A program made the translations under genes and the position numbers. 64,000 nt of DNA from a virus. The notes beneath the pieces are model-generated. The model had not been told where the DNA came from. It did no database searches and saw nothing but the letters and a program-made list of their open reading frames with translations. This document shows, in pieces, positions 1,655 through 48,691 of this stretch (positions within the stretch are counted from its first letter, which is position 1; every line of letters begins with the position of its first letter). The DNA lies in the IMG/VR virus record IMGVR_UViG_3300020274_000001, positions 32,001 to 96,000 of that record; one strand, given 5' to 3'.

Positions 1655-2242
1655 ATGCGAGCACGTGTTCCTATTGTCAAATATTTGTCAATGGTTTCTA
1701 AAGTGGAGCCTCACAAGAAGACTACACGGTTCTACTTGCAGATGTCAAACCACCCGATAGAAGCGGGGCATGTGCTGTTTGACGATAACCCTCGTGGCTC
1801 AAACAACATGCATGTTCTCACTACTTTACTCGACTACTTGAACGCTGGAAAGTCATGTCCTAAGTGTGGGTCAAAAGACTCGGCATTAAGCCAACATCGG
1901 GGCATCGATTACCACATTTGTTCAGAATGTAATAACCGGTGGATACCGTCTTCAAACTTACCGGATGACTTCATGGGAACCACCCCTGTCTATCGACCGA
2001 AGAAAGAGAAAGACGAGTTCAAAGGTGTAAGTGCTATTGAAGTCGGAGAAGCCGGGCTCTTAGAGGGATGGCACAAAAAGGACTCTGAATGCTACGCATG
2101 TCGTTGTCCTGTTCACAACGGACAAAGTGTCAACAGTATGGTAGTGTTCAATGACGGACACTTCTACTGCCACATGAATTGTGATGGTAAAGAGATATAC
2201 CGAGTGCTGAAAGAATTGAAGAAAGAAGGAGGAGTTGAGTAA
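1655..2242 (+). CDS. Zn-ribbon plus CHC2 primase-type Zn-finger protein
   Basis: CPKC..CSEC and CPVH...FYCHMNC motifs. Confidence 0.6.
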   Translation: MRARVPIVKYLSMVSKVEPHKKTTRFYLQMSNHPIEAGHVLFDDNPRGSNNMHVLTTLLDYLNAGKSCPKCGSKDSALSQHRGIDYHICSECNNRWIPSSNLPDDFMGTTPVYRPKKEKDEFKGVSAIEVGEAGLLEGWHKKDSECYACRCPVHNGQSVNSMVVFNDGHFYCHMNCDGKEIYRVLKELKKEGGVE

Positions 2243-2730
2243 TGGAAACAATATACATGACTGAATTAGAACACAAAGGAAACTTACGAATCGTGGTCGA
2301 GGTTCATACTTCTACCGATGGTTTTTCTAATTTAGAAAGCAGGAAACCGAGAATGATTCTAAGACCTGTCCGTAAAGAAAATGAAAACCCGAGAAATCTA
2401 CCAGAAAGAGAATTGCCTCGTAACTACAATGTAAGGGCAAGGTATCTTCGTGACGAAGAGAGTTATGATGTCAACTTCGACATTGACTCCACTAAGGCGT
2501 TTGAATGGTTTCGAATGGTCGAGAAGGATGAACACCCATACAGGGCCGCATATTACTTTACGAACATGTTCCTTGCCGCAGGACTGCCTGTCGGATTGCA
2601 ACTTACCAAGGCCAGCATCGACCAAATCAATTATTCGCTATCTTCGATAATCCAACACCAGAAGTGGATATCCGAAGGACATGTCGGAACAGAATACATG
2701 CACTACATGTTACCGGAGGACTTACTATGA
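2242..2730 (+). CDS. Hypothetical protein
   Basis: 162-aa ORF, stop/start overlap. Confidence 0.6.
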   Translation: METIYMTELEHKGNLRIVVEVHTSTDGFSNLESRKPRMILRPVRKENENPRNLPERELPRNYNVRARYLRDEESYDVNFDIDSTKAFEWFRMVEKDEHPYRAAYYFTNMFLAAGLPVGLQLTKASIDQINYSLSSIIQHQKWISEGHVGTEYMHYMLPEDLL

Positions 2731-3050
2731 AACTTTACGGCAATCATCTATTGCAACAAATGCGTCAAATGATGATGAGAGGCAAAGTGAATCCTAACGA
2801 GATGGCAAGATACAATGAAATTGTGCGAGTTGGAGACGCAGTTATCAACAGAAACACCAATACTATTGCCAGAGTCATCAGAAAAGACGAGGTAATTGCT
2901 GGAGCATACTTTAACATGGTTACCGTCTACGTCCTACAATATCCAGACAATACCACCCATCGATGGGGCTTCAATGATATGGCAGAATGCTGGAATCTAT
3001 GTCAACCACCAGCCATGGAGGAGTCAATGCTACCGGAGGAATTGAGATGA
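2727..3050 (+). CDS. Hypothetical protein
   Basis: ATGA overlap, GGAGG SD. Confidence 0.55.
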   Translation: MKLYGNHLLQQMRQMMMRGKVNPNEMARYNEIVRVGDAVINRNTNTIARVIRKDEVIAGAYFNMVTVYVLQYPDNTTHRWGFNDMAECWNLCQPPAMEESMLPEELR

Positions 3051-3156
3051 AAGAAACAGACGTCAAACTACTTGCAATGTTACTAATGAACACCATTTAC
3101 AATGACATTCGTATGATTGTCAGAGAGGAATTAGAGAGAGCAAAGGAGGAATAGAA

Positions 3157-6100
3157 ATGGTCACAATTATCAACAGTGTATTGAAGAACGGAGAAGATGT
3201 AGGTCTGATTTCTGTAAGATGGAGAGATGAAGACGGTAATCGACAAGAAGATGTGTTCCGTCACAATCCGTATGTCTACCTTGACCCTGCAAATGTCAAC
3301 CAATTGCAATCAACGAAAGAAGTGGTAGCAGGGACACCTCGTGCTTCATTCCCGCTTTCAGAGAAAGCATTTGCTCGCCGTCTGAAAGAGTGGCGTCGTA
3401 AGAAATCATACGACAATAGAGCCATCTGGGAACAGGGCGTAAAGATGGATGGAGTTGTCCATGTCGAAGAAGACCCCGACACTGTCACAAGAGATGGTGT
3501 CACTTTGACTCGTGTTGAATTCAGAGATGCACGCTCCCGTTCTGCTTTCCGTCGTGCCTATTCCGGTCTATCTGCTTCCAGAACCAAGCATGAGGAACAG
3601 TTCTGTATACGCCCTCCTATGGAGAAGGATTCTTTCGAATCGTTGTTTAACGACTCTCCTACACATACGCTATACTTTGACCTTGAATTACTCCAATATC
3701 ACGGTAATGGAGACTTCCCCAAATACACAGATATGCGTAATCCTCGGCACGATGTCCGCATAGGATTGAACAGTGCTGGGCTACAAGAGATGTCTCTGAT
3801 TGCAGTATACGCTGATTGGCTCGACCAATACCTTGTATGGGCACATCACCCTAACTTTGCCGAGTATGATACCGGTGCTTTACCGAGAGAGTATGCAGAT
3901 ATGGGAGAAGTCCGATACTTCAACGATGAGCGAGAGATGCTTGAGAATTTCGTGCAATGGATAGATATTATGGACCCAGACATGCTTGTAGCATGGAATG
4001 GTGACGGATACGATTTACCTATGCTACGCTACCGTCTTGAGGTAACAGGAGTCGGTGCTGACCGCATGTCTCCACGAGTGTCCTCTTCTAACGGTCAATT
4101 TACTACTACACCAGATTACCTGCCACCGTCTGACAATTGGACAGAGGAAGGAGAGCGTGTAATGAAGGGCAAATATGCCGCTTCCCGACAACCAATTCGT
4201 GGTAGGGCGAGTATTGACTTGCAACCTGCTTTCGTAGGTTGGTGGCGTTCTACCAAAGGACAAACACTTGGGTCGTATATATCGCTCGACAGGGCTACAA
4301 ATGACCTTCTCAAAGACTACATTAGTGTGGGTAAAGCAACAGACTTCAAGCCAGACTTTGACGACAAGACCTATGATACCTTCATTGAGGATTATATCTA
4401 CTATAACATAGTTGACGTAGCCGCTATGGTTGAAATCGAACGATATGCAAATGTCATCGAATTGCACCTTGCTATGCAGAATTTCTTGAAGGTTCCATTT
4501 GGCTCTACTTTCAACTCTACTCGCTTCTGTGGTGTCATGTTCAGTAAGGAGGCAGGGTTCCTTCCTGTCGACCCTGTATGGGATAATCAGCCCTATCAGA
4601 CCTATTGGGCATACGACCCCGAAACAGGAGAGCGTAGCGATACTGGAAACTTGCTTGACCCGAAGAACAAAGACGACGGTTTGGCGTATGAAGGTGCAGA
4701 AGTCGTGGACGTTCTATCCGAAGGTAACAAAGGATTACACTTCAATGTAGCCGCTTTCGACGCAAAGTCAATGTATCCATACAACATTGTGGGTAAGAAC
4801 ATCTGCTGGTTGACGGCATACAAGCCTCAAGAGGGCGACCCTAACGCCGTGTGGTTCGATATTCACTTGAGGAAAGGAAAGAAAGTGGTCGGTCGAGAAT
4901 CGATTGCTTTCCACCCAGCCGACAAGATGGAAGGCTCTTTGCCACGCATCGTATCTGTTGTCCTTGAGCGTCGTGCTCATTACAAGAAGGTGGCCAAGGA
5001 GTGCCGTCTTGCTGGTGACGACCTTGGTGCAAAGCAAGCCGATAACATGCAGAAGGCTGTGAAGGTTGTAGCCAATTCCTTCTATGGTGTTCTTGGTAAT
5101 GCTTGGGAATGGGGTCGAGATTCTCTTGACTTTGCTACATTCGGCCTTGCAGGTGCTACTACCAAATTCGGTAAGAAACAGGTTCAAAGTTGCCGTAAAT
5201 ATTGTGAGGACCTTGGTTACAAATCTATCTTCGGGCACACTGATTCTGTGTTCGTGAAGATGGGAGACGACAGGACTGTCGAGGACTGTATCGAGCAATG
5301 CCTAACCTTGGCCGATGACATCAGTGCCCACATCCAAAAAGACCTTGGTCACACAGGCGCAGAGTGGGAATTCGAGCAATTCATGGACCGATATTTCATT
5401 GCGAAAAAGAATCGGTATGCTGGTCGTATTGCATGGGTCGATGGTGAAATGGTTACCGATAAGCCGCTATCTCAACGACTGAAAGCGTCTGGATTTGAAT
5501 TGAAAGCCGCTAACACTTCCAAGGTTGTCCGAGATGTCCAATTGGAGACTCTGTCGTTGATGTTTGACGGTGCTGGTTTCAACGAGGTTGTTGATTTCTG
5601 CCGAGATAAATACGATACTGTGGCCTCTGGTAAAGTCCCTGTGGCTGAATTGGCTCCCCGTATGACAATCCAACAACATCTACCCCACCGATATCAGAAA
5701 ACTGGTTGGAATCGCTACTCTCCTTGTAGTTGTGGTGGATGCCCCATTATGGTCACTAAGGGGATGACAAAGGCCCAGAAGGGCGGACTTCGTAAGAATC
5801 GCAAGGATGACCTATGTTATACCATACAGGGTCCTCGTGGGTCAGACCACAGACGATACACCGTAGGTGAGCCTCTATGGAGACTAATGGATGAGCGTGC
5901 ATCTGCGGCGGCTTGGTTCAATGATTTCATTGCTAATGAGAATGAGCCTCCTATTGTCAAGGGTGAGTCGTTTTACTCCATACCTGTCCGAGATGGTCCC
6001 CATCCTGTCCCATACAGGAATAACAAGGTTCTGGGCCGTCAGTATGGCTTCATTGGTGTCCGTAGCATAGAACAAGCCGGGGCGTTCACTCCAGACTTTG

Positions 6101-6219
6101 AGGCTCTTGCCAATTCTACTGTTGTTGAGCCTCTCAAGAACGTGTTTGAAGGTATGCAGTGGGATATTGAAATCATCCGTGGTTTCAGACCTCCTACTCT
6201 CCAAGAATTTCTCTACTAA
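3157..6219 (+). CDS. polB: Family B DNA polymerase
   Basis: Exo motifs YFDLE, WNGDGYDLP, YNIVD; pol motifs FDAKSMYP, KVVANSFYG, FGHTDS. Confidence 0.95.
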   Translation: MVTIINSVLKNGEDVGLISVRWRDEDGNRQEDVFRHNPYVYLDPANVNQLQSTKEVVAGTPRASFPLSEKAFARRLKEWRRKKSYDNRAIWEQGVKMDGVVHVEEDPDTVTRDGVTLTRVEFRDARSRSAFRRAYSGLSASRTKHEEQFCIRPPMEKDSFESLFNDSPTHTLYFDLELLQYHGNGDFPKYTDMRNPRHDVRIGLNSAGLQEMSLIAVYADWLDQYLVWAHHPNFAEYDTGALPREYADMGEVRYFNDEREMLENFVQWIDIMDPDMLVAWNGDGYDLPMLRYRLEVTGVGADRMSPRVSSSNGQFTTTPDYLPPSDNWTEEGERVMKGKYAASRQPIRGRASIDLQPAFVGWWRSTKGQTLGSYISLDRATNDLLKDYISVGKATDFKPDFDDKTYDTFIEDYIYYNIVDVAAMVEIERYANVIELHLAMQNFLKVPFGSTFNSTRFCGVMFSKEAGFLPVDPVWDNQPYQTYWAYDPETGERSDTGNLLDPKNKDDGLAYEGAEVVDVLSEGNKGLHFNVAAFDAKSMYPYNIVGKNICWLTAYKPQEGDPNAVWFDIHLRKGKKVVGRESIAFHPADKMEGSLPRIVSVVLERRAHYKKVAKECRLAGDDLGAKQADNMQKAVKVVANSFYGVLGNAWEWGRDSLDFATFGLAGATTKFGKKQVQSCRKYCEDLGYKSIFGHTDSVFVKMGDDRTVEDCIEQCLTLADDISAHIQKDLGHTGAEWEFEQFMDRYFIAKKNRYAGRIAWVDGEMVTDKPLSQRLKASGFELKAANTSKVVRDVQLETLSLMFDGAGFNEVVDFCRDKYDTVASGKVPVAELAPRMTIQQHLPHRYQKTGWNRYSPCSCGGCPIMVTKGMTKAQKGGLRKNRKDDLCYTIQGPRGSDHRRYTVGEPLWRLMDERASAAAWFNDFIANENEPPIVKGESFYSIPVRDGPHPVPYRNNKVLGRQYGFIGVRSIEQAGAFTPDFEALANSTVVEPLKNVFEGMQWDIEIIRGFRPPTLQEFLY

Positions 6220-6528: not shown

Positions 6529-9500
6529 TCACTCGGTATACTTGAGTAACTCTTGACCGACCAACGGTGCTCTTCCTGCTATTGTTGAGCCTGTGACAGA
6601 GCGCATATCGGATACATTTCCAATCACTACTCCTCCTCGCAATTGCTTCTTCACGTCTTCCATAGCCATCGAATCGAAAGTATTGACGGAATTCGTCCCT
6701 ATGTTGCCAGAACCCGGACCTAAACCAATCAGTTTACCTTTAGCAGATATTGCTTCTGCGATAGTAGTGACATACCGGTAATCATAGTCACCTATTCCGC
6801 TTGAAGCATTCATCTGATAATTCAGTTGGTCCGCTACACAGGCTTGAGCGGCTTCTATTCCGAGGAACTTCTCTACTGTCTTAGGGTTGTCACACCATAT
6901 TGAGTCAACGTCAACATAATCTCCAAGTAATCGGACAAGGCCATCCCACACCTGTTCATGAGCAGAATCAATTTGCAAACCATACTTTCCATCTTTACGG
7001 GTGATGTATGTGGAACCTCCTTGTGGTAATCCGGATACTTGAACCAGAGAAATGTAGTCTCGCATGTTTAGCATTGCTCTGGCAGAAGTAGAATTCACCT
7101 TGATAACGAAGTTATCTCCTTCACCAATCTCTGCTCTCAACTCTCCGTCTGGTGAACTTTGCAGGTCACGGAAGACCCTTCTCACTTGTCTCATGGCAAA
7201 CTCAAGGTCGATGCTCTTATCTCGGGCCTTCTTTCTATCAACATAGAAGATACATAGCCCGTTCTCTACATCGTAGTCTACAACATCAAGTATGTCGCCA
7301 ATAAATTGAACTGAACACCAATCTGCAATACGGTCAGCGTCTTCCTCATTCCAATACTCTGGCTTCAGAGTGACGTAGGTAAACACCTGCTTACCCGGGT
7401 CGCTTTGGTCGGAACACTGGACAATTTGGTCAAGACGGTCCACAGATGTTCCCTGTCCTTTACCACCAGCGTGGAATGTTCTAAGTGAACCCTGTGTTGC
7501 CGGTTCTGCGAGACAACCTGCGGCGGTAGAACCGATTGCTTCTCCGGGCTTAACCTTGTTCTCTTCAATCCACCAGAGTAATTTGTCTACCATTGTTTTT
7601 ACCATGGGCTTCATGACCTCTCTTTTAGATAGAACATGTTTTACAGCCGAAATTAGTTTGTTAAGGTCGTGTTTCTTGGAAATTTCGTCTTCGAAGAACT
7701 CTATATGGGCACTTCCTTTAACACACTCGTCGCAATCCATCCCAAGTGGAACCTTGTGTTTACATGTAAAGTCGAAGAAATACGGTTGTAATTCTATGGT
7801 AAAGTCTTCGTCGGGCCCGCTAACAGTAAAGTCTTCTTTTACCTGTCCGTCTGGGAATCGGTGAACCATCTTAGCAGAGTATGGTCGGAACCCGTCTCCA
7901 CCGGCTCTGAAGGATATAACCGAGTTATCTTTCAAGTCTATGGTCTTTCCATCCTTATCTACCACAAGTGATTCTAATGCTCTCCTTACCCTGTTAGCGA
8001 GATAACCAGAGTCTTGTAGAGCACCAGATGAAGATTCCATGTCTGACCTTCTTCCGGCAACAGAAGCCATGAAGTATTCGTGTGGCTCCATTCCGGTGTA
8101 ATATGAGTTACGAGTATATCCATTGTGTATTGGGTGCTCTATATCGTATCCACTAAGAGGATAGTGAGAAAAGTTTCGTGGTAGAATCGTGGTATGTTGT
8201 ATTATTTCTTGAGGGGCCATTTCTCCATCTTCATTCTCTTGATAATTCTTGTATGAAGTCCACCCTTTACTTTGGAAGCCTCGCACTGGCAGAACTCCAG
8301 AAATCCTAACTTGTCCGTATGCCGCCCCCATCTGTTGGATGTTGAGTTCCTTACCTCTGCCCCCAGACCTAACTGCAATCTCCATAGCGTTGTCTGCACC
8401 AGCGATTTGAGATACTGCCATAGCGACACCATCTTCCCAAGGTGCCTGTGCTTCGTAAATGAGCATTTGACGGAACTGATATGGATTCTTATCGAGAATC
8501 TGTTGCTTCTCTGATTTAGAATAATCTGGAGAAAGCCATTTGTCACTATCCACATACCTCTGTAAGTTATAATTAGCGAAGTCGATATTTATCTGCTTGC
8601 ATACTTCGGAGGTTGTATCATAACCCGCTCGTATGTCTTCATAGTATTCCATAGGTAAACCACAATCTGCAACACCCATCGAATAACCTACTGCGTGATG
8701 TGCGGCAAATCCAAGACGGCACAACATATCGATGAATTTCTGCATCTGCTTACCGCCTTCTTCGTAACCAAAGCGATAATAGAACGCGGGAGCAATTGTT
8801 CCCTTTTCTTTACCTGCGAATGTCTTGTCAAGCGTTCCCGTAATCATCTCACCGTCAATGATTACCGTCGTGTCTTTTTCGGGCTTTCCTTTATCGTTGA
8901 GAACCATAGAGCCGTCTTCTTTGTAAAGTATACCAGACTTGAATTTAGCATTGATTCCATCTGGTAGTAGGAGACTTATGCACCGATATCCAGAATAGTA
9001 TTTGCCTTTGACATCGGGTTTACCAATGTCTTCGATATATTGGATACGAGCGTCTCCATCTGGTAGTAGGCTTCCGTCTTTGTGGTATACTTTACTGAAT
9101 AATTCAAGCATACTCTTCTTACTGAAATAAACTACGCCATCTGAATCGAAACCGACACCGATGGACTCGTTGAAAGTATTAGCCTTACTCTTATGCTTCA
9201 TTGTCAAGAGATAAACACCAGAAGTCTGGTCGTGGTCTGTTCCAATTACCAACTTACCCATACGGTGATGAAGCATATTGTCCCTCAACTGTAACTTATC
9301 TCTTATTTCGTTCATGGCCTCTTCAGACCCCGGAACATAGATGTTCATTTGGTCACCGTCATAATCTGCGTTAAATGGAACACAAATCGCAGGATTAAAC
9401 GATATCGAATGCTGGTCTAACGGAACTACTCTCAATCCATTCAATGATTGACGATGTAGGGAAGGCTGTCGGCCAAACAAAACATAATCTCCGGGCAATA

Positions 9501-11523
9501 AGTTACGAGCGACAACATCTCCGACTCTTAATTTAACAGACCCTTCTGGTCCAAACATTTCTCTACGCCTCTCCATGTTCTTTTCCCACTCAAACATCCA
9601 TTCTTCTCGCTTCATTTTTTTAGCGAAATCTACGGTGCTATTTTCGTCTGGCTTAGGTATAGTCTTCTTGTGCTCTACCCATTCTTCGCCGATGGCCCCC
9701 CATCTTCCGTTGTTCCAGAGAGGGGTATCATCAAGTTTCCACCTTCTGACTTCCTTGAGTCCGAATGGTTCAATCCACATCGCTCCCGGATATCTTTGCT
9801 TTACAATATCTCCGAGAGACCAATTGTGTGTAATTGACCGCTTTTCAGAAGGCACCCCTCTAATGACGAGTTCTGTTAATTGGTCTATGTTTTCTTCCGT
9901 TACCTTCACTCTCACATACGTGTTCATACACGCCGCAGTAGGCACTCCAACTTCGTTAATCGAAAGGTCTCCGTTAGCCGTAATTACCGACCGTATGACA
10001 TTGTTAACCACTTTGGAGTTCATCCTTCTCCGAAAGATGGTTTTCTTGCTTCCATATCCCGACACCGTATCGAGGATACCGGCCCTAATTGTCCGCTTTT
10101 CTCGCCCTGCTTTCGTGCGGACCATCTTGGCTCTGAACATACCAATGCTGGCGTTCTGATTGTAGAAGCAATGGGCGACGGAACGGAACAAGTCGCCCAC
10201 CATACGGGTTTGAATTTGACCGGGGTCGTAAGCACGTTGTTTCGCTTGCTTAATCTGATTATTGACACGGACAACTTGCGAATACATCATAGTGAGGTCG
10301 TTCTCCATCGGTCTACCTGTCTTGAAGTCTTCTTGCATTGGTCGCATAGTATTGGGCGCAACCGGCAGAACCTTCATCATCATGTATTCGGGACGCATAG
10401 TAGGGGCGTCAAAGCCCATCATACGAGCATTTTCGTCTGTAATCGACTGTAATAGAATATACACGTTAGAGTAAGGATAGAATCGGGGCCCAACCTTCTT
10501 CTTTAGTGCTGGTTGTAAAAGGAACATTCTTTGTCTTATGTTCCATGTTACTAACGGTGAATCTTTCTCACAATGAGGGCAAATAAGAACGCCTCTATTG
10601 GAATCCCTATTCTTTTCTTTCCTAATCGCTGTATTGATTAAGTTACGAATCCTACCCACGCCGCTTGGGTTCTTGGATATTCGGTGAATCCTCTCTATTT
10701 TCGGTGATAACTCATCATACCTTTCATCAGATATTGGAATCTTGAAACAATGGTGGCAGAACATGTTCAAGACGGAATCAAATGAATTCGGATTGGAGGC
10801 TATTGCGAACAAAACATGGGGAACAGGTTCAGCGAGTTCGATGTGTCCAAAGTGACCGGGGCAGTAGGGTGGGTTGTCGAGTAAGCCCTCACATGTTTGA
10901 CATTGTCCACTTCTTTCACTTGCCCCAAGTCTGCCGTCTACTGGACCATTCATTACGGGAGTAGGTTGTCGAGTCTGTGTTATTGTAGTGTGATTGTTTA
11001 CCTGTAATACAGACATCGCTCGTATATCTTCTGGAGACATCATATTCATTCCTACACGACGAATTACCTTCTCGTCGGTGGTCACTACCGTATCTTTCAC
11101 ATTTACTTTCGCTGTGAATCGAATAGGGGTTGAAACATATACTCCTCGCATACCCATGTCATCGAATTCATCTGGATATTGCTCGGATAAGTCATACACA
11201 TCTTCTGTTTCATAGAAGGTAGCCGGGATTGTAGGAACAACCCCTTCTTCGTCGGGGGTATCATCAAATGTTCCTACATTAACTTGACCTACGAGATAAT
11301 TAATTTTACTCGACCGTAATCCTTCTGCGTCAGGATGCATGTAAAAATATGCAATGGCGGCTGTTTCTCTGTCTGGTAGAAACCTTCGGTCTCCCCCAGA
11401 AATATCAATATCTGCTACTGTAATTTCCTTTCCGTTTTCCAACAACTCTGACCTAAGTTGGTCTTTACGGAAGAACCAATAGAATGAGGTAACTTTGAAT
11501 GGCCCTTCTTGTTCTTCATCCAT
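6529..11523 (-). CDS. rpo1: DNA-directed RNA polymerase largest subunit, fused A'+A'' (Rpo1/Rpb1-like)
   Basis: CPGHFGHIELAEP, RQPSLH, catalytic NADYDGD, bridge helix (SGYLANR), PGEAIG..AEPATQ..LRTFH. Confidence 0.95.
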   Translation of the reverse strand: MDEEQEGPFKVTSFYWFFRKDQLRSELLENGKEITVADIDISGGDRRFLPDRETAAIAYFYMHPDAEGLRSSKINYLVGQVNVGTFDDTPDEEGVVPTIPATFYETEDVYDLSEQYPDEFDDMGMRGVYVSTPIRFTAKVNVKDTVVTTDEKVIRRVGMNMMSPEDIRAMSVLQVNNHTTITQTRQPTPVMNGPVDGRLGASERSGQCQTCEGLLDNPPYCPGHFGHIELAEPVPHVLFAIASNPNSFDSVLNMFCHHCFKIPISDERYDELSPKIERIHRISKNPSGVGRIRNLINTAIRKEKNRDSNRGVLICPHCEKDSPLVTWNIRQRMFLLQPALKKKVGPRFYPYSNVYILLQSITDENARMMGFDAPTMRPEYMMMKVLPVAPNTMRPMQEDFKTGRPMENDLTMMYSQVVRVNNQIKQAKQRAYDPGQIQTRMVGDLFRSVAHCFYNQNASIGMFRAKMVRTKAGREKRTIRAGILDTVSGYGSKKTIFRRRMNSKVVNNVIRSVITANGDLSINEVGVPTAACMNTYVRVKVTEENIDQLTELVIRGVPSEKRSITHNWSLGDIVKQRYPGAMWIEPFGLKEVRRWKLDDTPLWNNGRWGAIGEEWVEHKKTIPKPDENSTVDFAKKMKREEWMFEWEKNMERRREMFGPEGSVKLRVGDVVARNLLPGDYVLFGRQPSLHRQSLNGLRVVPLDQHSISFNPAICVPFNADYDGDQMNIYVPGSEEAMNEIRDKLQLRDNMLHHRMGKLVIGTDHDQTSGVYLLTMKHKSKANTFNESIGVGFDSDGVVYFSKKSMLELFSKVYHKDGSLLPDGDARIQYIEDIGKPDVKGKYYSGYRCISLLLPDGINAKFKSGILYKEDGSMVLNDKGKPEKDTTVIIDGEMITGTLDKTFAGKEKGTIAPAFYYRFGYEEGGKQMQKFIDMLCRLGFAAHHAVGYSMGVADCGLPMEYYEDIRAGYDTTSEVCKQINIDFANYNLQRYVDSDKWLSPDYSKSEKQQILDKNPYQFRQMLIYEAQAPWEDGVAMAVSQIAGADNAMEIAVRSGGRGKELNIQQMGAAYGQVRISGVLPVRGFQSKGWTSYKNYQENEDGEMAPQEIIQHTTILPRNFSHYPLSGYDIEHPIHNGYTRNSYYTGMEPHEYFMASVAGRRSDMESSSGALQDSGYLANRVRRALESLVVDKDGKTIDLKDNSVISFRAGGDGFRPYSAKMVHRFPDGQVKEDFTVSGPDEDFTIELQPYFFDFTCKHKVPLGMDCDECVKGSAHIEFFEDEISKKHDLNKLISAVKHVLSKREVMKPMVKTMVDKLLWWIEENKVKPGEAIGSTAAGCLAEPATQGSLRTFHAGGKGQGTSVDRLDQIVQCSDQSDPGKQVFTYVTLKPEYWNEEDADRIADWCSVQFIGDILDVVDYDVENGLCIFYVDRKKARDKSIDLEFAMRQVRRVFRDLQSSPDGELRAEIGEGDNFVIKVNSTSARAMLNMRDYISLVQVSGLPQGGSTYITRKDGKYGLQIDSAHEQVWDGLVRLLGDYVDVDSIWCDNPKTVEKFLGIEAAQACVADQLNYQMNASSGIGDYDYRYVTTIAEAISAKGKLIGLGPGSGNIGTNSVNTFDSMAMEDVKKQLRGGVVIGNVSDMRSVTGSTIAGRAPLVGQELLKYTE

Positions 11524-13288: not shown

Positions 13289-13798
13289 TCATTCCCAATC
13301 GTCATCCCAATCATCGTCGTCGTCATCGTCGTCGTCTGAAGTGTCGTTCCCTTTGCTCATTAGAGAGTTTAATCCCCATTCGTCATCAGAATTTTCAGAT
13401 TCTTCTTTCTCTTCGGGTTCTTCCTCTGGTTCTTCCTCTGGTTCTTCCTCTGGTTCTTCTTCGTCATCATCTAAAGAATCCCAATCGACATCATCATCTT
13501 CGTCCCAATCTTCGTCTTCGTCTTCGTCTAAGGAGTCCCAATCTGCGTCATCCCACTCTGGGTCCCACTCTTCTTCCTCTGGTTCTTCTTTCGCCTTTTT
13601 CTTAGAAAGAGTCTTCTTTTTGGTAGCAGGCTTCTTGGTAGAAGGTGCATTATCGGACAAATCGACGCTTTTGAGCGTGATTGAGTCGTTCTTCTTGAGT
13701 GCGAGGCTTGGTTCTAACCAACCCGATAATTTATTCTTCACTGACTCAAGGTTCTTGCCTTTAATTGATACCGTTATGTCGAAATCGAATTCCTTCAT
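13289..13798 (-). CDS. Protein with extremely acidic Trp-punctuated C-terminus
   Basis: D/E-rich tail with EEPE repeats. Confidence 0.7.
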   Translation of the reverse strand: MKEFDFDITVSIKGKNLESVKNKLSGWLEPSLALKKNDSITLKSVDLSDNAPSTKKPATKKKTLSKKKAKEEPEEEEWDPEWDDADWDSLDEDEDEDWDEDDDVDWDSLDDDEEEPEEEPEEEPEEEPEEKEESENSDDEWGLNSLMSKGNDTSDDDDDDDDDWDDDWE

Positions 13799-19118: not shown

Positions 19119-19355
19119 ATGTATTCCAATACATATGGATTCAGCAGGAATCCCCCCATTTATAGGGGCATTCCCGGAGCAGGAAAAAGCGTTGCCGCTT
19201 TTGACTTGAGAAAACTTAACGAAATCGAAGTTACTGATTTTATTACAGAGTTCGAAAAAGCACTTTCGGGAATACAAGAAGAAAGAAAACTGATTGCCGC
19301 AGATAAAATCCGAAAGGCATTCCGTGCCTATATGGCGAGAACACGCGGAAAATGA
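19119..19355 (+). CDS. Hypothetical protein
   Basis: ATG after GGCC-AAT-GGCC-ACA-G. Confidence 0.55.
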   Translation: MYSNTYGFSRNPPIYRGIPGAGKSVAAFDLRKLNEIEVTDFITEFEKALSGIQEERKLIAADKIRKAFRAYMARTRGK

Positions 19356-19377
19356 CCCAATGGGTCGCAGAGTAAAC

Positions 19378-20013
19378 ATGTCAAACATAACTGATAATGG
19401 AAACCGCATGGTCGTTGATGACGACCTACATACCTACGCAATGGTTGCGTGGGTGGCGTCGCTGGCGCATAAAGACCAGCAACGTAAAACTGGAGGCGCG
19501 TATATTATGCACCCGTTGGGTGTATCGTGCCTAATCGACCCTGCATGGTCGAAACTTGATAACATGTGCGTGGCCGTTTGCCACGACGTCCTTGAAGACG
19601 TTCCACACATGTTGGATTACGCTAAGGAAGAACTCACTAAATATGGGTTTGGAATTAGTGCTGAAACAGAGCCTTGGGACTTCCTTTCCCCGAAAGGAAA
19701 ACTCACCCATTTGCTGGCTATATGCAGCAATGGGAACACGAGATGGGCTCGCTCTATTACTTCTAAAGTGATGGAACTTACGGTAGTTTGGCCTCGGCCA
19801 GACCATCCGGAAGATGACCCTAAAGACAAAGTTGCGAAGAAGGCGTGGGAAGTCGAGAGGATTCAGAACCTTTCGATGGATGCCGCATCCGTGACGAAGG
19901 CCGATAAGACCTTCAATTCGCTGAACCCAATCCCGGGTCGAGACCCGGTGAAGGAGGCGGCAAAGTATCAGCGATACTTTGACGCTGTTGACGCTCGAAT
20001 GTCGGAGGAGTAA
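19378..20013 (+). CDS. HD-domain hydrolase (RelA/SpoT-HD, Mesh1-like)
   Basis: AHKDQQRKTG.AYIMHP, HDVLED, KADK.FN. Confidence 0.8.
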   Translation: MSNITDNGNRMVVDDDLHTYAMVAWVASLAHKDQQRKTGGAYIMHPLGVSCLIDPAWSKLDNMCVAVCHDVLEDVPHMLDYAKEELTKYGFGISAETEPWDFLSPKGKLTHLLAICSNGNTRWARSITSKVMELTVVWPRPDHPEDDPKDKVAKKAWEVERIQNLSMDAASVTKADKTFNSLNPIPGRDPVKEAAKYQRYFDAVDARMSEE

Positions 20014-20045
20014 GACCGACTCGGTTCCCTAATGGGGGACCCCAG

Positions 20046-21083
20046 ATGTCAGACGACATTGAATTGTATGATGAGGTAGACCTCATCAAAAAGATGACGA
20101 GAGATTTGAAAAAATCGTCATCTTCATTGAAGAAACCGGAAGTTCGGTTTCTGGTTGATGCATACTACCGTATGCAGGAAAAGCGTATCCAATACGCCAG
20201 CCAGATTCGAACTATGAAGGAATTCGGTGAGCCGCACGAACTACTAACATGGTTCTACACGCAGGCTCATACCCTTGAAAAGCAAATTGCTGGAGCACTC
20301 GATGCTTACAGCACGAGCAATAAAGTGGGACAATGGATGCGAAGCATTCCGGGCATTGGTCCGGTAATTGCGGCTGGATTCATGGCTCACCTTGATATTG
20401 CTCCGTGGCGTTGTCATAACGTCGGACTCAAGGGCAAGAAAAACCTTCCTTGCACCGCTGAAAAGGGTGCCTGCACAGACAATTGTGGCCACGAGCCTAT
20501 CAATTACGCTGGACAATGGCACACGTTTGCAGGAATGAATCCTCGCATCCAGTGGGAAAAGAAAACACGCCGACCATGGAACACAGCACTCAAAACGCTG
20601 TGTTACAAGTTGGGTGAATCGTTCGTAAAGGTTCAAAACCATAAGGACGATTTCTACGGTCAAATCTTCGTTGCGCGTAAATCCCAAGAATGGGAGCGCA
20701 ACTTCAATGGTGAGAATGCCAAAGCGGCAGAACTTGCTTTGAAGAAAAACATCGGAAAGAACACGAATGCCTACAAGTGGTATTCTGGAGCAGTGGCCAG
20801 TGATTGGGCACGTTCAGAGTGGGAATCCGATAAGAAAGGACAGAAGTTTGGAGGAGCAACGCTCCCCAAGAAAGCAATTGTTGAAGACGGAACACCTATG
20901 CTTCCGCCGGCACACATTCACGCACGAGCGCGACGCTATGTCGCCAAGTTGTTCTTGTTCCACCTGCATCAAGTTATGTGGGAAGTTGAACAAGGTGAAT
21001 CACCGCCACCACAGGCTTTCTTCCAAGACAGTGAAAACATCATTGAGGTGCCAACTGTCTTCCCGAACTCTCCGTTCGTTTGA
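20046..21083 (+). CDS. Nop-domain RNA-binding protein, TasA-like (IS110 Tnp/Nop5-related, no nuclease domain)
   Basis: RFLVDAYY..Q..RI coiled coil, SIPGIGPVIAA, W.FAG..P, RPWN..LK, H..ARARRY..KLFL; no N-terminal DEDD RuvC or HNH. Confidence 0.8.
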   Translation: MSDDIELYDEVDLIKKMTRDLKKSSSSLKKPEVRFLVDAYYRMQEKRIQYASQIRTMKEFGEPHELLTWFYTQAHTLEKQIAGALDAYSTSNKVGQWMRSIPGIGPVIAAGFMAHLDIAPWRCHNVGLKGKKNLPCTAEKGACTDNCGHEPINYAGQWHTFAGMNPRIQWEKKTRRPWNTALKTLCYKLGESFVKVQNHKDDFYGQIFVARKSQEWERNFNGENAKAAELALKKNIGKNTNAYKWYSGAVASDWARSEWESDKKGQKFGGATLPKKAIVEDGTPMLPPAHIHARARRYVAKLFLFHLHQVMWEVEQGESPPPQAFFQDSENIIEVPTVFPNSPFV

Positions 21084-21272
21084 AGAAAAACAACGGCCCC
21101 AGTGGCCATAGAATGATGTCTTTTGAGACTGAACATGGATTGGTAACAATCCACTTTGATGATAAGAGTTTGATGATTACTTCCAGTAAGCAGGTAATGA
21201 ATATTGAACTCTTTCAAGCCTTCATTGGCTACATGGAACGTATTAATGCTGTTCCGGCTCAATGAGCCATAG

Positions 21273-21455
21273 ATGCTGTGTTATGCACGTATTGAAAAGG
21301 GTAGCGCATGGAAAATATGTGGTCACAAAATGAGTGACTACGTTCCATTTGCTGGACGCATGCAATGCCCTACTTGTGGAGTGAAAGGAAGTTTCCGCTC
21401 TCCAGAATATGTTGAGAATGAACCAAGATATATTTTGGTTAATCCAGCAGAATAA
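21273..21455 (+). CDS. Small Zn-finger protein
   Basis: CPTCG; hairpin-ATAG-ATG. Confidence 0.55.
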   Translation: MLCYARIEKGSAWKICGHKMSDYVPFAGRMQCPTCGVKGSFRSPEYVENEPRYILVNPAE

Positions 21456-21470
21456 AGGCCAATGGCCATA

Positions 21471-21605
21471 GAACCAACCATCATACAAGAATTGCACTAT
21501 GCACGAATGGTTCACAGAGCACGCTATTAATGAGGAACTGCAAAAGCGGCGAATGCTCATAGAACCAAATCAGAGCCAATGTAATATATTTGAAAAGTAA
21601 GGTTC
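21471..21605 (+). ncRNA. TIGR-like guide array, 3 units
   Basis: Spacers TCATACAA/CTATGCAC; TTAATGAG/AAAGCGGC; GAGCCAAT/TTTGAAAA. Confidence 0.85.
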
Positions 21606-21609
21606 ACAG

Positions 21610-21771
21610 ATGACACAAAAAAGTTGTCCGAATTGTGGAAAGGTCTACGAGACCGATTTCCCTACTCGTGAAGAAGCAGTTGCCAATGGTGGCACCGCTA
21701 TTCAAAGAGAGCAACACCAAACAGGAATCTGTTCCGACAAATGTTGGGATGAATTCCTTGGTCTTGCTTGA
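21610..21771 (+). CDS. Small Zn-finger protein
   Basis: CPNCG...CSDKC; ACAG-ATG. Confidence 0.55.
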   Translation: MTQKSCPNCGKVYETDFPTREEAVANGGTAIQREQHQTGICSDKCWDEFLGLA

Positions 21772-22037: not shown

Positions 22038-22062
22038 TGCCAGACGGTCCTATGGACCACAG

Positions 22063-22200
22063 ATGAAATGTCCACACTGTGACAAATCTATCGCTGTCCG
22101 GCTTGAACAACCGGGCAAGAAGGCGGCTCGCCGTCGAACTCTTCGTGCCCGTAAGGCAGAGAAGTTGAGAGAAATCCAACCATCTAACGAAGAAGAATGA
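22063..22200 (+). CDS. Small basic CPHC protein
   Basis: Hairpin-ACAG-ATG. Confidence 0.5.
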   Translation: MKCPHCDKSIAVRLEQPGKKAARRRTLRARKAEKLREIQPSNEEE

Positions 22201-22803: not shown

Positions 22804-23552
22804 CGGTCCAATGGACCATAGTCTGGTAGTTACGAGGTGGCAATAACCCGCCTTAATCGTCCGAGGGTCGCTCCCTTGGGGCCTCGTAGCAACCTCGCTT
22901 GGGTGGAGGCTTTCCACCGCTTGACTTCCTCGGACTTCGGTCCTTGCCGTTCCCAAGACGGGAGGATTAGGTGGGTGCCAGACATCCAAGCGTAGATTAA
23001 AATGAGTATGAAATCGAAGACGCAGACTTTCGTGGTCTGCATGACTTTGATGATGTTCGGTCTTTTCACGACCGTCATCATGCAACTCGGCTAATGGCCA
23101 CAGAGCAACATGGGTAACAGAGGAAATCCATCACGCAAGTCTCGTTGGAGCGGAAAAGCCCATATTAAGGCTGAAGAGAAGCGAAGACGAAGAGAAGAAG
23201 CAAAACAAGCGATAAGGGAAGCACAAATAGAAAGGGTGGAATGTGAAAACGAAGTAATACTCTACCGAAGAATCCCTATTCGATATGATGGCGTAATACG
23301 CAATCATAATTGATTCTTAACGGCCAATGGCCACAGAAAACTGTTAAAGACAATCCGAAGTATGGAGTGACATGCAAGACTACCAAGTCCGATGCACCGT
23401 TGCGGCCATGCTTTATGTCGGAGGGCAAGTTAAGTCCTACGAAGAAGCATTGAAAATTGCAGACAGCATGTTGAATGCTTCTAAGCAGTATCAAGGTTAA
23501 TCGCACATATGTGCCAAAAAAAACCATAGAACAGGGCACAACATATGTGCCT

Positions 23553-23582
23553 CACGCACACTCATATAATGAAGGAGGAGAG
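23553..23582 (+). promoter_or_regulatory. Conserved promoter-like repeat, copy 3
   Basis: Identical 30-mer. Confidence 0.7.
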
Positions 23583-24716
23583 GACCACCAATCCAGAATC
23601 CTTCATAACCCGAGTGTCGCGGAATACTAATTCCGAATGTCACTCGGGTTAGTGTTATTTCATAGAAGGGAGTTTGCTCGAAGCCGAGCATCCCCACAGA
23701 ATACCTACGTGTAAACCCACAAGTGCCTCTTCGGAGGTTGGCCTAATCAGAGGTCCTCGGCGAAAGCCGACCTAATTGTGGTCTCGTAGGGGACACCACC
23801 CCTCCGGCTTGGCCGGTTGGAGTGTGGATTGTGTGTCTTACCGGGGAGTAGCATGAAGACTCCCAAGGTAGGGCTTGGGTATGGTCCGTTCAAAAGGACC
23901 ATAATGCGCAATTGAACACAAGAAGAAAAAAGACAGGAAAATAGTTTGCCGGTAATCAACCCGGGGCTATGGACGTGTTCGCCTTCGGGCGAAGAAGATG
24001 TGCCGGGAAGAGGAAACCCGGTTGTTCTTGGAAACATTACTGCCGTATTCTGGCTGGCACCAGAAGGAGTAGTGGAGAAAGGAGACCCCCTTGGGGGGAT
24101 ACGGAATCATGCTGGGCCTGCACTAACACTGCGGGGTTCCCGGTGATTCTAACGCGCCTGCGGGTTGATAACCGCAGGCCACCGACCATGACGTGAAAAC
24201 CAAAAGGTCGGCATCTGACACAACCGAGAAATCGGACTTTAGTAGATTAACACTCGAACGAGATTTTCTGAATTGTGGACCTGCCGGTTTAAGACCGGAC
24301 GGGCCGAAAGGTATCAATTGGACTGAGGGACCGCTGAATAAGCGGGTCGGCGTTTTAGTCGTTTACCGAAACAAGGAATGGACACGTATCAACGATAATG
24401 ACTTATCACCAATGAACGTCTTACGGTTAGTTCCGTTCCTGTGAATAACTCAAATGCTCTTGGAGAATGTAGCCGTAAGACGTTAAATTCTCTGTCAATA
24501 GAGCCTCCCCATGCCTCCCCGGATGGACACACGTAGATGATGAACTTATTTCATCCGCCACGCTTTGTGAAAGCAACTACGACAGCAGACAAGGAAGGAA
24601 CATCTTCCTTAACTGCATCATTGAAAGCACTTCACGGCGACATGGTGCGAAGAGGATATCCTCCGAGCACTACAACAACTAAAACAAGAGTGGATTGAAG
24701 TTCACTCTTTTTTTTG
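23571..24716 (+). ncRNA. Putative long structured ncRNA region
   Basis: No credible ORF; many GC stems; ends in hairpin plus T-run. Confidence 0.45.
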
Positions 24717-24779
24717 GGATTCGAAACATAGAATATGAAATTTATTTAGAATGAACGAACTCGAATCTCTTAGGTTAAA

Positions 24780-26264
24780 ATGTCAAACAAAAAGACAAAC
24801 AACAACCGCAAATCCGGTAATGCCGGAAAGGGAGGCAATGCCTCCAAGCGAGGAAACCACAAGCAGGGGCGCGGGAAACCAGCCTCTCGTGATGACCTCA
24901 AAGGTGGGAGCAGTAATGGTTACAACCATCGCTCTCCTATCGGAAATCGTAAGTCAAAGAGACACAACACTCACCGAGTGAGTGCTGATAAAGCCTCTGG
25001 CAAGCAAAACACGAAACCGAAGATGATGCCGAAAGGTAGAATTCCTCGGAACAGCAAGGCACCAATGGTTCCTTGGGTAGAACTTCCAAAGTCTGCTCAA
25101 GTCCACCATTACTACTTTGTTATTCGTGAATGTCTTGAAGGTGCTTACGAATGGGATGCGAAAAACAAGGCTCGAAACCTTGGAATTCGCCAACTCGACC
25201 TGCACGGCTCAACAGCCGGCTCTGTCGAGTCTATGTTGACCCAAACCGCTCGACTACGTCGTGATTGGAGAGCCGTTGTTGGTATTCTAAGAATGCTACA
25301 CGCGGACGACCTAATCTCGGCTTCATTTGTCGAGAAGATACTGAACAACCATCCTCTAACGGGTGCTAAGTCAGTAAGGGTCACCCAAGACACTGAATTC
25401 GTTAGCGATTACATTCGTGACAAGAGTTCTCTGTCGAACAAATCATGGGTAAAAGATGCGAAAGCATCGTATACTCGTGCACTCAAACGCATTCGTGCTG
25501 ATTGGGAGAAGGAAACGGTTGACGCTGAAAAAGCGAAATACCCAGACCTCTCTGATGAACAATACGCACATGCGGCCAGCGTTGCATGGAAAGCAATGTC
25601 GAATGACCGAAAGGCACCGACAATTGAAGTGGATGGTGAATCTATTCTGTGTAAAACAGAGGATGCCTTCGTTTCTGCTCACATGCAACGTCGAGCACGC
25701 AAGGAAGCCGCAAGGCTCCCTGCCCTATACCGCCTCAAAGGTGGAGTATCTTACAAGATGTTGGATAAAGACGGCGAGATTGTTTCTCGTTCCGACTTCG
25801 TTAACATCGAATACGCTGTAAGAAACAACGGCAAAATTTTCATTGCCGTCGTCAATGGAGGAGGAAGAGGAAAGGTGGCTAATTCACCATTCCGCTCCGA
25901 AGCATACAACATGAAATCCCGTAAGGGAGATGAGTTGCACATTGATGATGTTGGAACGCCCACAGAGGTGGAAACCAACGTAATTCAGCGTGAGATACCC
26001 GAAACCGAGGGAGCAAAACTCCCATCAGACCCTAAGCGTCTGAAAGAGGTTCTTGGTGACGAAAAGAGGATGAATAAAATCCTTGAACCGGACATGCATC
26101 TTCCCGTCGAGGAAGTTATTGACCGGATGAACCAAGCACAATGGGGAGTTCCTTCGCAATCGAAAGATAAAGCGAAGAAACGCTCAAAGAAGGCGACGAG
26201 AAAGGTGGACATGTCCGCTAACCGTCGTGCTGGTCGACGCTCTGACAAGAGCGAAGATGAGTGA
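24780..26264 (+). CDS. Hypothetical protein with basic disordered termini
   Basis: 494-aa ORF. Confidence 0.75.
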   Translation: MSNKKTNNNRKSGNAGKGGNASKRGNHKQGRGKPASRDDLKGGSSNGYNHRSPIGNRKSKRHNTHRVSADKASGKQNTKPKMMPKGRIPRNSKAPMVPWVELPKSAQVHHYYFVIRECLEGAYEWDAKNKARNLGIRQLDLHGSTAGSVESMLTQTARLRRDWRAVVGILRMLHADDLISASFVEKILNNHPLTGAKSVRVTQDTEFVSDYIRDKSSLSNKSWVKDAKASYTRALKRIRADWEKETVDAEKAKYPDLSDEQYAHAASVAWKAMSNDRKAPTIEVDGESILCKTEDAFVSAHMQRRARKEAARLPALYRLKGGVSYKMLDKDGEIVSRSDFVNIEYAVRNNGKIFIAVVNGGGRGKVANSPFRSEAYNMKSRKGDELHIDDVGTPTEVETNVIQREIPETEGAKLPSDPKRLKEVLGDEKRMNKILEPDMHLPVEEVIDRMNQAQWGVPSQSKDKAKKRSKKATRKVDMSANRRAGRRSDKSEDE

Positions 26265-35769: not shown

Positions 35770-35776
35770 GTCCATA

Positions 35777-35818
35777 GAGCAAAACATACCCTCCGAGTTA
35801 CAACTCATGTGTATGCTC
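35777..35818 (+). ncRNA. TIGR-like guide unit
   Basis: TACCCTCC/ACTCATGT. Confidence 0.8.
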
Positions 35819-35821
35819 ATA

Positions 35822-35921
35822 GGAGAGAGGATGCGAGCAGTCGTCCTATGCAATAACTGCCACTTCCAAAGATGGGAAGTATCGGGTGCGAGCAGTCCCC
35901 GAATCAATACTGTGCCTCTCC
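35822..35921 (+). ncRNA. Structured RNA cassette with two pseudoknot-like repeats
   Basis: GGAGAG/CTCTCC closing stem; TGCGAGCAGT..CAATA(A)CTG twice. Confidence 0.6.
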
Positions 35922-37791: not shown

Positions 37792-37800
37792 TTGACCATA

Positions 37801-37844
37801 GAACCAAACCAAATGGAATGTATTTTACATTATTCGAATGGTTC
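37801..37844 (+). ncRNA. TIGR-like guide unit
   Basis: AATGGAAT/CATTATTC. Confidence 0.8.
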
Positions 37845-37848
37845 ACAG

Positions 37849-38109
37849 ATGGCCCTATCGGTTATTGAAAACAACGTCATGAATGCGCAACTGCATTTCA
37901 TGAGAGACATGCTTGAAGTTCAAAAGAACCAAGCAGAGGCAATGGAAAGAATTGCTAATCAACTCGAAGAGATGATGAAGTTCCTACATGGGACTACCAT
38001 CGAACAAGTCGAAAGAAAACGACAACAAATGAAGAAGAAGACTCAAAAGAATGAAACTTCTGAAGTTGAAGCCATGAAGGAATTCATGCAAAAAACAAAA
38101 GAGGCTTAG
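37849..38109 (+). CDS. Coiled-coil hypothetical protein
   Basis: ACAG-ATG. Confidence 0.6.
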   Translation: MALSVIENNVMNAQLHFMRDMLEVQKNQAEAMERIANQLEEMMKFLHGTTIEQVERKRQQMKKKTQKNETSEVEAMKEFMQKTKEA

Positions 38110-48598: not shown

Positions 48599-48687
48599 GA
48601 GCAAAACATGGTGACTGAATTGCAGTTTAAAAGAACGCTCATAGAACCGAACCAAGTCAGATGAATTGTAAAAACGTTGATTGGTTC
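48599..48687 (+). ncRNA. TIGR-like guides, 2 units
   Basis: TGGTGACT/GTTTAAAA; AGTCAGAT/AAAACGTT. Confidence 0.85.
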
Positions 48688-48691
48688 ACAG

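Follow-up and report, generated by a model that had tools for sequence, protein, structure and literature searches.

What does a Nop-domain protein without a nuclease do in a virus whose genome holds no tandem guide array, and where would its guides be? The question is raised by a gene at positions 20046-21083 (+ strand) of a 64,000-nucleotide stretch of DNA (the window), which covers positions 32,001-96,000 of the virus record IMGVR_UViG_3300020274_000001 in IMG/VR. The gene, called tas here, is present in a single copy in the 140,336-bp record, the genome of a marine virus. An earlier note, made from the letters of the window, had described its product as a nuclease-less TasA-like Nop protein with a Cys-rich insertion and had proposed that it binds dispersed guides. 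The protein is a TasA (a nuclease-less TIGR-associated Nop-domain protein), and it is probably an RNA-guided, non-cutting DNA binder that uses 43 stem-closed dual-spacer guides scattered downstream of its gene. Statements below on published systems refer to those passages of the cited papers that were accessible.

The tas gene encodes a nuclease-less TasA

The tasA gene is an open reading frame (ORF) for a protein of 345 amino acids. The ORF itself, a Cys/His cluster and the four motifs that the earlier note had pointed out (SIPGIGPVIAA at residues 100-110, FAGMNP at 161-166, RPWNTALK at 176-183 and HIHARARRY at 290-298) are all read directly from the translation; the cluster agrees with the series CH...C...C...CGH given in that note. 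The AlphaFold2 model, built on a 110-member alignment, has a mean predicted local distance difference test score (pLDDT) of 91.5 and a predicted template modelling score (pTM) of 0.88. It opens with a coiled-coil hairpin, the dimerisation element of Tas/Nop5 proteins (residues 8-91, positions 20067-20318, +), whose helices (8-25, 30-60 and 65-91) align to the coiled coil of TaTasR. Next comes a helix-hairpin-helix, SIPGIGPVIAAGFMAHL (residues 100-116, positions 20343-20393, +), in which G103 is invariant and G105 and P106 nearly so. The equivalent of the wedge loop, FAGMNPRIQWEKKTRRPWN (residues ~160-180, positions 20523-20585, +), aligns to TaTasR G210-K230, the wedge segment as defined in the methods of Xu et al. 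(bioRxiv 10.64898/2026.09.09.750476).

Structure comparison placed the protein among Tas proteins. Foldseek against the PDB listed TasH first (E 1e-6), followed by TaTasR 9MTY (2e-4) and ISCro4/IS621 (2e-4 to 1e-3), with no credible match beyond these; Nop5 chains were not among the structural matches listed for the model, which by itself is not decisive. VIA-align superposed 226 residues on TasH (Z 18.6, root-mean-square deviation 3.1) and 192 on TaTasR (Z 16.8, 2.4 A, 25% identity). For IS621/ISCro4 the Z score was ~12, and model residues 27-339 aligned only to chain residues 125-320. A profile built from the 110 family members found TaTasR at 5.3e-28, SpTasH at 1.9e-17 and IS621 at 7e-7 in the PDB, and the single sequence matched TaTasR at 9.8e-5. 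Profile and structure comparison with Tas and IS110 proteins, which the earlier note had proposed, thus puts the protein inside this fold, closer to Tas than to IS110 proteins.

No nuclease domain is present. The coiled coil opens the protein at residue 8 with no sequence for an N-terminal domain before it, which leaves no room for a RuvC, HNH or DEDD domain, and the alignments to TasH and TaTasR begin past the nuclease domains of those proteins (at chain residues 65 and 111, respectively). At the other end, the chain stops ~30 residues past the last Nop helix and the IS110-type Ser domain is absent. A Pfam search at E values up to 10 found no nuclease domain and no PF01798 (Nop); the only matches were sub-threshold ones to H2TH_5 (E 0.016) and Transposase_20 (E 0.11), at the helix-hairpin-helix. 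The absence of a nuclease and that of the Ser domain had been claimed earlier, and both hold.

The family is very large and unnamed. A word-indexed search gave 2,523 matches among 4,171 candidates, and an exhaustive search gave 1,947 family representatives at 50% identity, of which 857 had E <= 1e-30. PHROGs assigns the protein to phrog_4285, labelled 'transposase' (2e-29).

Relatives of the gene lie beside TIGR arrays. Among viral contigs there were 502 pattern matches, 454 of which encode a relative, and the best 80 (36-47% identity) were taken for analysis. A lag-identity scan detected a 34-37-nt periodic stretch in 74 of these 80 loci, nearly always touching the tas gene, and two of the six loci without a lag signal (L005 and L066) show short tandem arrays in a motif listing. 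The arrays read GAGCGAGCCA-N8-GAGCGCACCA-N8 in L036, GAGCGAGCCA-N8-GAACATCA-N8 in L002 and L004, and GAGCGAGCCA-N8-GAATATGCA-N8 in L006. They are dual-repeat arrays as described in the accessible text of Faure et al. 2025 (PMC12045711). The protein is therefore a TasA from the branch in which dual-repeat arrays are the norm: its fold is closer to TasH/TasR than to IS110, its profile matches TaTasR, and TIGR arrays stand beside its relatives. The same three lines of evidence bear out the earlier description of a nuclease-less TasA-like Nop protein.

Guide-like units are dispersed over 38 kb

No tandem array was found in the genome by Tandem Repeats Finder, a box-chain scan or a lag scan, which detected the positive control, the array of L036. 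A different arrangement was found. The sequence GGTTCACAGA occurs 24 times on the + strand of the 140-kb genome and never on the - strand. It belongs to a unit of 50-53 nt with the form ATAGA-ACC-gAAc-CA / N8-G / aAaTgCA / N8-G / aAtGGTTC-ACAGA; a second type of unit is closed by GAGC...GCTC. Each half of a unit reads NCA-N8-G and comprises box C, a variable segment of 8 nt (spacer) and box D, the latter reduced to G, with a U before it in about half of the spacer A ends. In length and form the middle block matches the loop repeat of L002 and L006, and the spacer length of 8 with an 8-9-nt loop repeat GAA..CA is that of L002, L004 and L006.

Chance does not account for such units: a strict pattern found 31 of them on the + strand and none on the - strand. 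A covariance model gave 42 genome-wide matches at E <= 1.5e-7, all on the + strand, between record positions 53,468 and 91,528. Together with one more unit recognised by pattern (21514), the field comprises 43 units in 27 mini-arrays at window positions 21468-59528 (+). Fourteen of the mini-arrays are single, 11 double, one triple and one quadruple, and a GC hairpin precedes every one. The first (21468-21610, +) consists of three units head to tail and ends in the ATG of the ORF at 21610-21771. Its first unit begins 385 nt past the tas stop codon (21468 vs 21083), in agreement with the distance of ~390 bp given in the earlier note. In an alignment of 31 units the proposed pairs are paired in 99.5% of cells. 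One pair of the stem shows covariation, being A-U in 22 units and G-C in 9, and the box C/box D pairs vary only by C to U opposite G (C-G 29/U-G 2; G-C 23/G-U 8). That the tas protein binds these dispersed guides is a well-founded inference, since the geometry of the units matches the arrays of the nearest relatives and the units are confined to the 38 kb that follow the only tas gene.

Other gene starts carry what reads like a guide unit minus its interior, the part with the spacers. Such an empty junction has a GC hairpin of 4-5 bp, capped by a loop of AAT type, and then (C)A[CT]AGA, to which the TG of a start codon is usually joined, as in the bare form GGCC-AAT-GGCC-ACAGATG. There are 15 on the + strand vs one on the - strand in the window, and 30 vs 4 in the genome; examples on the + strand are at window positions 15434, 18226, 19104, 19355, 20026, 21257, 22047, 22200, 23322 and 51093. 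The tas start codon itself is at an empty site (GC hairpin and CCAGATG, 20026-20048, +). In the related contig L121 a full unit abuts the tas ATG at this place, and in L120 a full unit occupies the empty hairpin site at 21257.

In the lag scan, the only repeats of period 30-79 in the genome were coding ones, at ~13.3-13.6 kb of the window and at the genome ends. The former, at 13311-13645, are short tandem repeats with periods of 12-57 inside a coding region (ORF 13289-13798, -), and they also gave signals in the array scans. The record ends (1-240 and 140036-140336, outside the window) contain an 18-21-nt periodic GC-rich repeat; it was considered as an array and rejected, being read as the coding repeat of a basic RRRKSP-type protein. 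A 55-bp 'terminal repeat' lies inside this coding repeat and may therefore reflect a circular assembly and not true ends.

Spacers are replaced and units relocate between strains

The unit frame ATAGAACC-N33-35-GGTTCACAGA was found in at least 205 stretches of metagenome contigs, and 191 loci were analysed (458 kb, with overlaps). Their 338 unit contexts hold 310 distinct spacer pairs, and identity to a pair of the window was seen in only 11. At 51 pairs of orthologous sites, the downstream DNA is 92% identical (mean over 120 nt, ungapped) and the repeats 86%, and the spacers 40%. Site 40463 is an example: compared with L117, the downstream DNA is 99% identical, and the spacers match at 0 of 8 and 1 of 8 positions.

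The units themselves are also found in new places. Among 31 matches to a spacer pair of the window (at most 2 differences in 16), both flanks were unrelated in 13, one was shared in ~10 (one of them borderline) and both were shared in 8, with the caveat that an ungapped comparison of flanks can be misled by indels. In a related strain represented by RNA-library contigs (X17), spacer A of unit 35141 differs at 7 of 8 positions, and a 45-nt skip at 35772-35818 lies over the unit at 35774-35823. The same strain has a joint from the end of the unit at 37798-37849 (37846) back to 34691, with another unit before 37800. Gene order and unit content vary between strains, and the breakpoints are at unit ends. 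This combination of conserved repeats with replaced spacers and relocated whole units is the behaviour of guides and not of promoters.

Tas homologues of 67-71% identity are encoded on the unit-bearing contigs L104, L121 and L147/148, where units lie 0-312 nt from the gene. Other searches were negative. No tblastn match to the protein was found in phage records and no close Tas relative in genome contigs; viral contigs scanned with the single tas protein and the strict unit pattern gave no match, a scan in which the record itself was possibly not included. The unit pattern matched genome contigs 13 times, singly and in unrelated bacterial metagenome-assembled genomes, vs ~50 matches expected by chance on a rough estimate. 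RNA-library contigs extend over some of the units and, from 4 libraries, over the tas ORF, which weakly points to transcription of the gene: such contigs may contain DNA, cannot reveal RNA ends or processing, and are uninformative where they do not cover.

The guide-processing pair is lost and the unwinding pair is kept

In SpTasH, Y289 and H296 of the C-terminal loop form the pair that processes the guide precursor (PMC13421893). They align to P-Y...G-H of the family in the profile alignment, where 81 of 110 members have Tyr and His and 20 have Phe and His. In the window protein, the alignment to SpTasH shows the pair replaced by A324 and S329 (C-terminal loop, positions 21003-21053, +). Neither residue is present in the four nearest relatives either (P0003, P0004, P0005 and P0007; 68-83% identity). 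The window protein and these four form a fully supported 5-row group inside a starred 14-row group that includes L006, a locus with a tandem array; the tree was quick, midpoint-rooted and made without the careful mode, and was used only for these two groups. The absence of the Tyr/His pair goes with stem-closed guides according to Xu et al. (bioRxiv 10.64898/2026.09.09.750476, in the part available).

The aromatic-basic pair at the junction where DNA is unwound, as described by Guan et al. 2026 (section 5; 10.64898/2026.08.11.744272), appears to be kept. It corresponds to K183...Y187 (positions 20592-20606, +): Y187 aligns to TaTasR Y238, and K183 is nearly invariant. A helical insertion of ~70 residues is found at the 'insertion 2' position (residues 216-287, positions 20691-20906, +), where TaTasR has 7 residues. 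It is conserved in the family, with N219, G222, T240, W245 and Y246 as conserved positions.

A Cys-rich insertion resembles a zinc knuckle

The Cys-rich insertion (residues 119-152, positions 20400-20501, +) is a putative zinc knuckle in the loop that would contact box D, just before the wedge. It contains C123, H124, C136, C143, C147 and H149, with the spacing C-x12-C-x6-C-x3-C. Seventy of the 80 viral-locus homologues lack it and have an 18-residue stretch, 'LLAHIDITKAPTxGHIW', in its place. The other 10 have 42-53 residues there, with the pattern C-x(n)-C-x5-6-[C/H]-x3-C, and in the family alignment the insertion is present in 33 of 110 members (~30%). The third ligand position is His in L005, L034, L075 and P0019. 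Such exchange between Cys and His is what zinc ligands do, and for this reason the insertion looks like a zinc knuckle, as far as a sequence pattern can tell.

The model at the insertion has a pLDDT of ~79, with ~31-34 residues without helices. In the profile alignment the insertion takes the place of TaTasR D195-S203 (mapped within G194-G210), including R198, which contacts the box D uracil (Xu et al., bioRxiv 10.64898/2026.09.09.750476). Relatives that carry the insertion retain tandem arrays, so it is not tied to the dispersal of guides. It is scattered over several branches of the quick tree, in which any protein with 3 or more Cys in residues 100-190 was labelled as a carrier, a crude rule that mislabelled L061 and L073 at least.

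The earlier note had suggested that the insertion may recruit partners. No support was found for this: a search for a conserved neighbour of tas across L104, L121 and L147 found none, and the HD-domain gene at 19294-20013 is not retained beside tas in these contigs. Given that no neighbouring gene is conserved and that the loop replaced is the one with R198 at box D, contact with nucleic acid would be the more likely role.

Genome context

The record encodes a family B DNA polymerase, a 1,664-aa Rpb1-like RNA polymerase subunit with fused domains 1-5, two PriS-like primases and MCM, in genes at window positions 3157-6219 (+), 6529-11523 (-), 48677-49903 (+), 59635-60957 (-) and 61789-63987 (-). 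This replication and transcription gene set fits an archaeal virus, and it agrees with the description of group D magroviruses in the accessible text of Philosof et al. 2017. No tRNA genes were found.

Three small + strand ORFs follow tas (21273-21455, 21610-21771 and 22060-22200; 60, 53 and 46 aa). They contain zinc-ribbon motifs of the CxxC...CxxC type, and a search for a family match found none for any of the three. The first two are kept beside tas in close strains only. Further downstream, an ORF-less stretch (~23640-24720) may be a large structured viral non-coding RNA. At 23725-24492 the depth of RNA-library contigs is 2,137-3,320 (X15), 543 (X16) and 1,269 (X18), and it is ~5-45 elsewhere on 19-39 kb. 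The stretch has many GC hairpins with tetraloops and a folding energy of -301 kcal/mol vs -268 +/- 9 for shuffled sequences (z -3.65). It has no credible Rfam match: nothing reached the gathering level, and a single match to a long non-coding RNA family on 23000-24900 was at chance level (E 0.49).

Proposed mechanism and alternative explanations

The observations above establish the fold and the family, show that a nuclease is lacking and reveal the guide-like units; together they probably add up to an RNA-guided DNA binder that does not cut. Two copies of TasA would dimerise through their N-terminal coiled coils, and the dimer would take one unit of ~52 nt, with its closing stem (GAACC/GGUUC or GAGC/GCUC), two NCA-N8-G modules and the 8-nt loop repeat GAAAUGCA. 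The two spacers would pair with opposite strands of a target of ~16-18 bp, which would be bound and not cut. The outcome would be RNA-guided repression or blocking, by analogy with other TasA proteins; MbTasA and PlTasA are RNA-guided, non-cutting DNA binders (10.64898/2026.09.09.750476; 10.64898/2026.08.11.744272). The four-Cys insertion would fold round zinc in the box-D-contact loop and may grip the extended edge of the guide or nearby DNA. With the Tyr/His pair for self-cutting lost, release of the units would have to fall to some other nuclease, which would probably cut at the stem bases, where the AUAGA/ACAGA motifs lie. All 43 guides would be transcribed between genes, within the long + strand gene cluster.

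Several results weigh against this mechanism. Searches for paired-spacer targets in the virus's own genome and in 1.2 Mb of sibling sequence gave near-matches at the level of control geometries and no exact match. An approximate re-implementation of the published stem-loop detector (TIGRFinder motifs) found 4 matches genome-wide vs 0-5 in 10 shuffles; this chance-level result means that the box motifs of the units differ from the published ones. When folded as naked RNA, the units do no better than shuffled sequences (z -0.4 to -2.6). For the insertion, zinc binding and the predicted placement near box D come from pattern and alignment order, not from coordinates. Finally, a role purely as DNA guides does not account for the location of the mini-arrays: 24 of the 27 abut a start ATG whose ORF has 30 aa or more, and 20 of these overlap with it, the final A of ACAGA serving as the first letter of ATG. 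This abutment goes beyond guide function and thereby keeps alive both a cis-regulatory explanation and the idea that guide excision is coupled to mRNA 5' ends.

The coupling idea is an extension of the guide mechanism and is offered tentatively. The TIGR array would have been split into mobile single-guide cassettes, which sit at hairpin-ACAGAUG junctions before most genes of the 38-kb cluster. Excision by a non-Tas nuclease at AUAGA/ACAGA would also cut the polycistronic RNA into mRNAs that start at or near the AUG, and guide production would in this way be coupled to expression. The cassettes would hop or recombine and swap spacers, so that each strain has its own set of at least 40 guides, probably against host or rival DNA. 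The unit junctions may resemble the cassettes of promoter and stem-loop that flank shuffled genes in T4-type phages.

A cis-acting regulator is the best surviving alternative, albeit an unlikely one. Here Tas would bind units in viral mRNAs and control the processing or translation of the next gene, and the variable segments would not be DNA guides. The position of the units at start codons speaks for it, as do the unit-less hairpins with ACAGATG at other gene starts, the loss of the self-processing pair and the negative target searches. However, the variable segments are replaced wholesale beside genes that are 92-100% identical, and in 13 of 31 matches the same spacer pair stands in unrelated flanks, which does not suit gene-specific cis elements. 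The retention of K183/Y187, the DNA-unwinding pair, would be out of place as well, and doublets to quadruplets would be superfluous for a cis switch.

It is much less probable that the units are viral promoter, terminator or recombination cassettes unlinked to Tas, with the tas gene an array-less relic. Units do lie at gene boundaries after GC hairpins, the strain joints coincide with unit ends, and the alignment reads as an A/T-rich loop repeat ~26 nt before the ATG, the spacing expected between an archaeal TATA box and a leaderless start. Yet the two equal NCA-N8-G modules, the closing stem and the loop repeat, which resembles the one in L002 and L006, are the anatomy of a TIGR guide RNA (tigRNA), and in doublets the distance from the upstream unit to any ATG is not that of a promoter. 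The units are restricted to genomes or contigs of the lineage that also carries this Tas, and hypervariable segments inside a promoter have no rationale.

The two remaining explanations have very little in their favour. A small ribonucleoprotein of the archaeal box C/D type, in which the viral Nop protein and host L7Ae and fibrillarin methylate RNA via the units, would account for the Nop fold, the box C/D-like order and the archaeal type of the virus; it is highly improbable, as the fibrillarin-binding N-terminal domain of Nop5 is missing, Pfam Nop is not matched, the nearest solved relatives bind DNA, and guides of 8 nt are shorter than those of archaeal small RNAs. A decayed IS110-family transposase, suggested by the PHROGs label, the weak Transposase_20 match and the similarity to IS621/ISCro4, can practically be dismissed: there is neither a DEDD nor a Ser domain, Tas structures score clearly higher, and the family has ~1,950 representatives at 50% identity with arrays beside them.

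Comparison with known systems

The closest known systems are the dual-repeat TIGR-TasA (e.g. FpTasA; Faure et al. 2025, PMC12045711), which likewise consist of a Nop domain with a coiled coil and no nuclease. The 36-47% identical homologues adjoin dual-repeat arrays of 34-37 nt, with the same spacer length of 8 and a similar loop repeat, and the long insertion 2 reported for this branch (Xu et al., 10.64898/2026.09.09.750476) is present in the window protein too. In contrast to them, there is no tandem array here, the units are spread over 38 kb and the Tyr/His pair is lost. The edge repeat is enlarged to a closing stem of 4-5 bp with AUAGA/ACAGA.

The stem-loop TIGR-TasA (PlTasA, BlTasA and MbTasA; 10.64898/2026.09.09.750476, 10.64898/2026.08.11.744272) share other features with this system. 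In their published descriptions, as far as accessible, each unit has its own stem, the Tyr/His pair is missing, sub-arrays lie at flexible positions, and TasA acts as an RNA-guided repressor. A short conserved motif marks the base of the stem, CUU there and AUAGA/ACAGA here. PlTasA also has an accessory hairpin B beside box D (10.64898/2026.08.11.744272), which in the order of the chain occupies the position that the Cys insertion has here. The sequence of the window protein, however, groups with the dual-repeat relatives; its stems and loop repeats are conserved and not variable, and the published motif set misses its units.

SpTasH and TaTasR (PDB 9W04 and 9MTY), the best structural matches, have the wedge loop, the helix-hairpin-helix and the unwinding aromatic residue in common with the window protein, which lacks their HNH or RuvC domain. 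Compared with TaTasR it has ~31 extra residues with four Cys in place of DIDRFDSVSK, and ~65 extra at insertion 2. The IS110/IS621 bridge-RNA recombinases share the RNA-binding core of coiled coil and helix-hairpin-helix (Z ~12, E 7e-7). They differ in having DEDD and Ser catalytic domains, and in using the loops of a bridge RNA and not box C/D-type dual spacers.

Significance

The first descriptions of TIGR-Tas systems date from 2025-26. The accessible literature already covers TasA and its role in repression, stem-loop guides, and sub-arrays at flexible positions. In the available parts of Faure et al. and Xu et al. no passage on zinc, cysteine or dispersed units in Tas was found, and that of Guan et al. 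contains no mention of zinc that was found. A wider literature search gave no paper on dispersed tigRNA units; among the matches listed, papers on TIGR-Tas and zinc, judged by title and the start of the abstract, looked like reviews or dealt with unrelated zinc proteins. One to four units per site at 27 start-codon-abutting sites were not found described in the accessible passages on stem-loop TIGR-TasA. Three contig identifiers and one peptide of the lineage were not found in the supplements of Faure et al. that were available (Table S1 searched over 9,182 rows).

The family is thus a known one and the protein a new member of it; the system is set apart by the layout of its guides, the lost processing pair and the turnover of its cassettes. 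The literature leaves open the origin and turnover of arrays, the natural role of TasA and the question whether guides of 'array-less' Tas proteins exist but are hidden (Faure et al., PMC12045711; Xu et al., 10.64898/2026.09.09.750476; accessible parts). The lineage is a natural case of guides outside any array, which escape the published detector. Hundreds of metagenome contigs document the replacement of spacers and the relocation of cassettes between close strains. A Tas without its own processing residues must rely on another nuclease, and both the turnover and the maturation of guides become testable. The putative zinc-knuckle box-D loop, present in ~30% of the family, would be a ready variant for relating structure to function.

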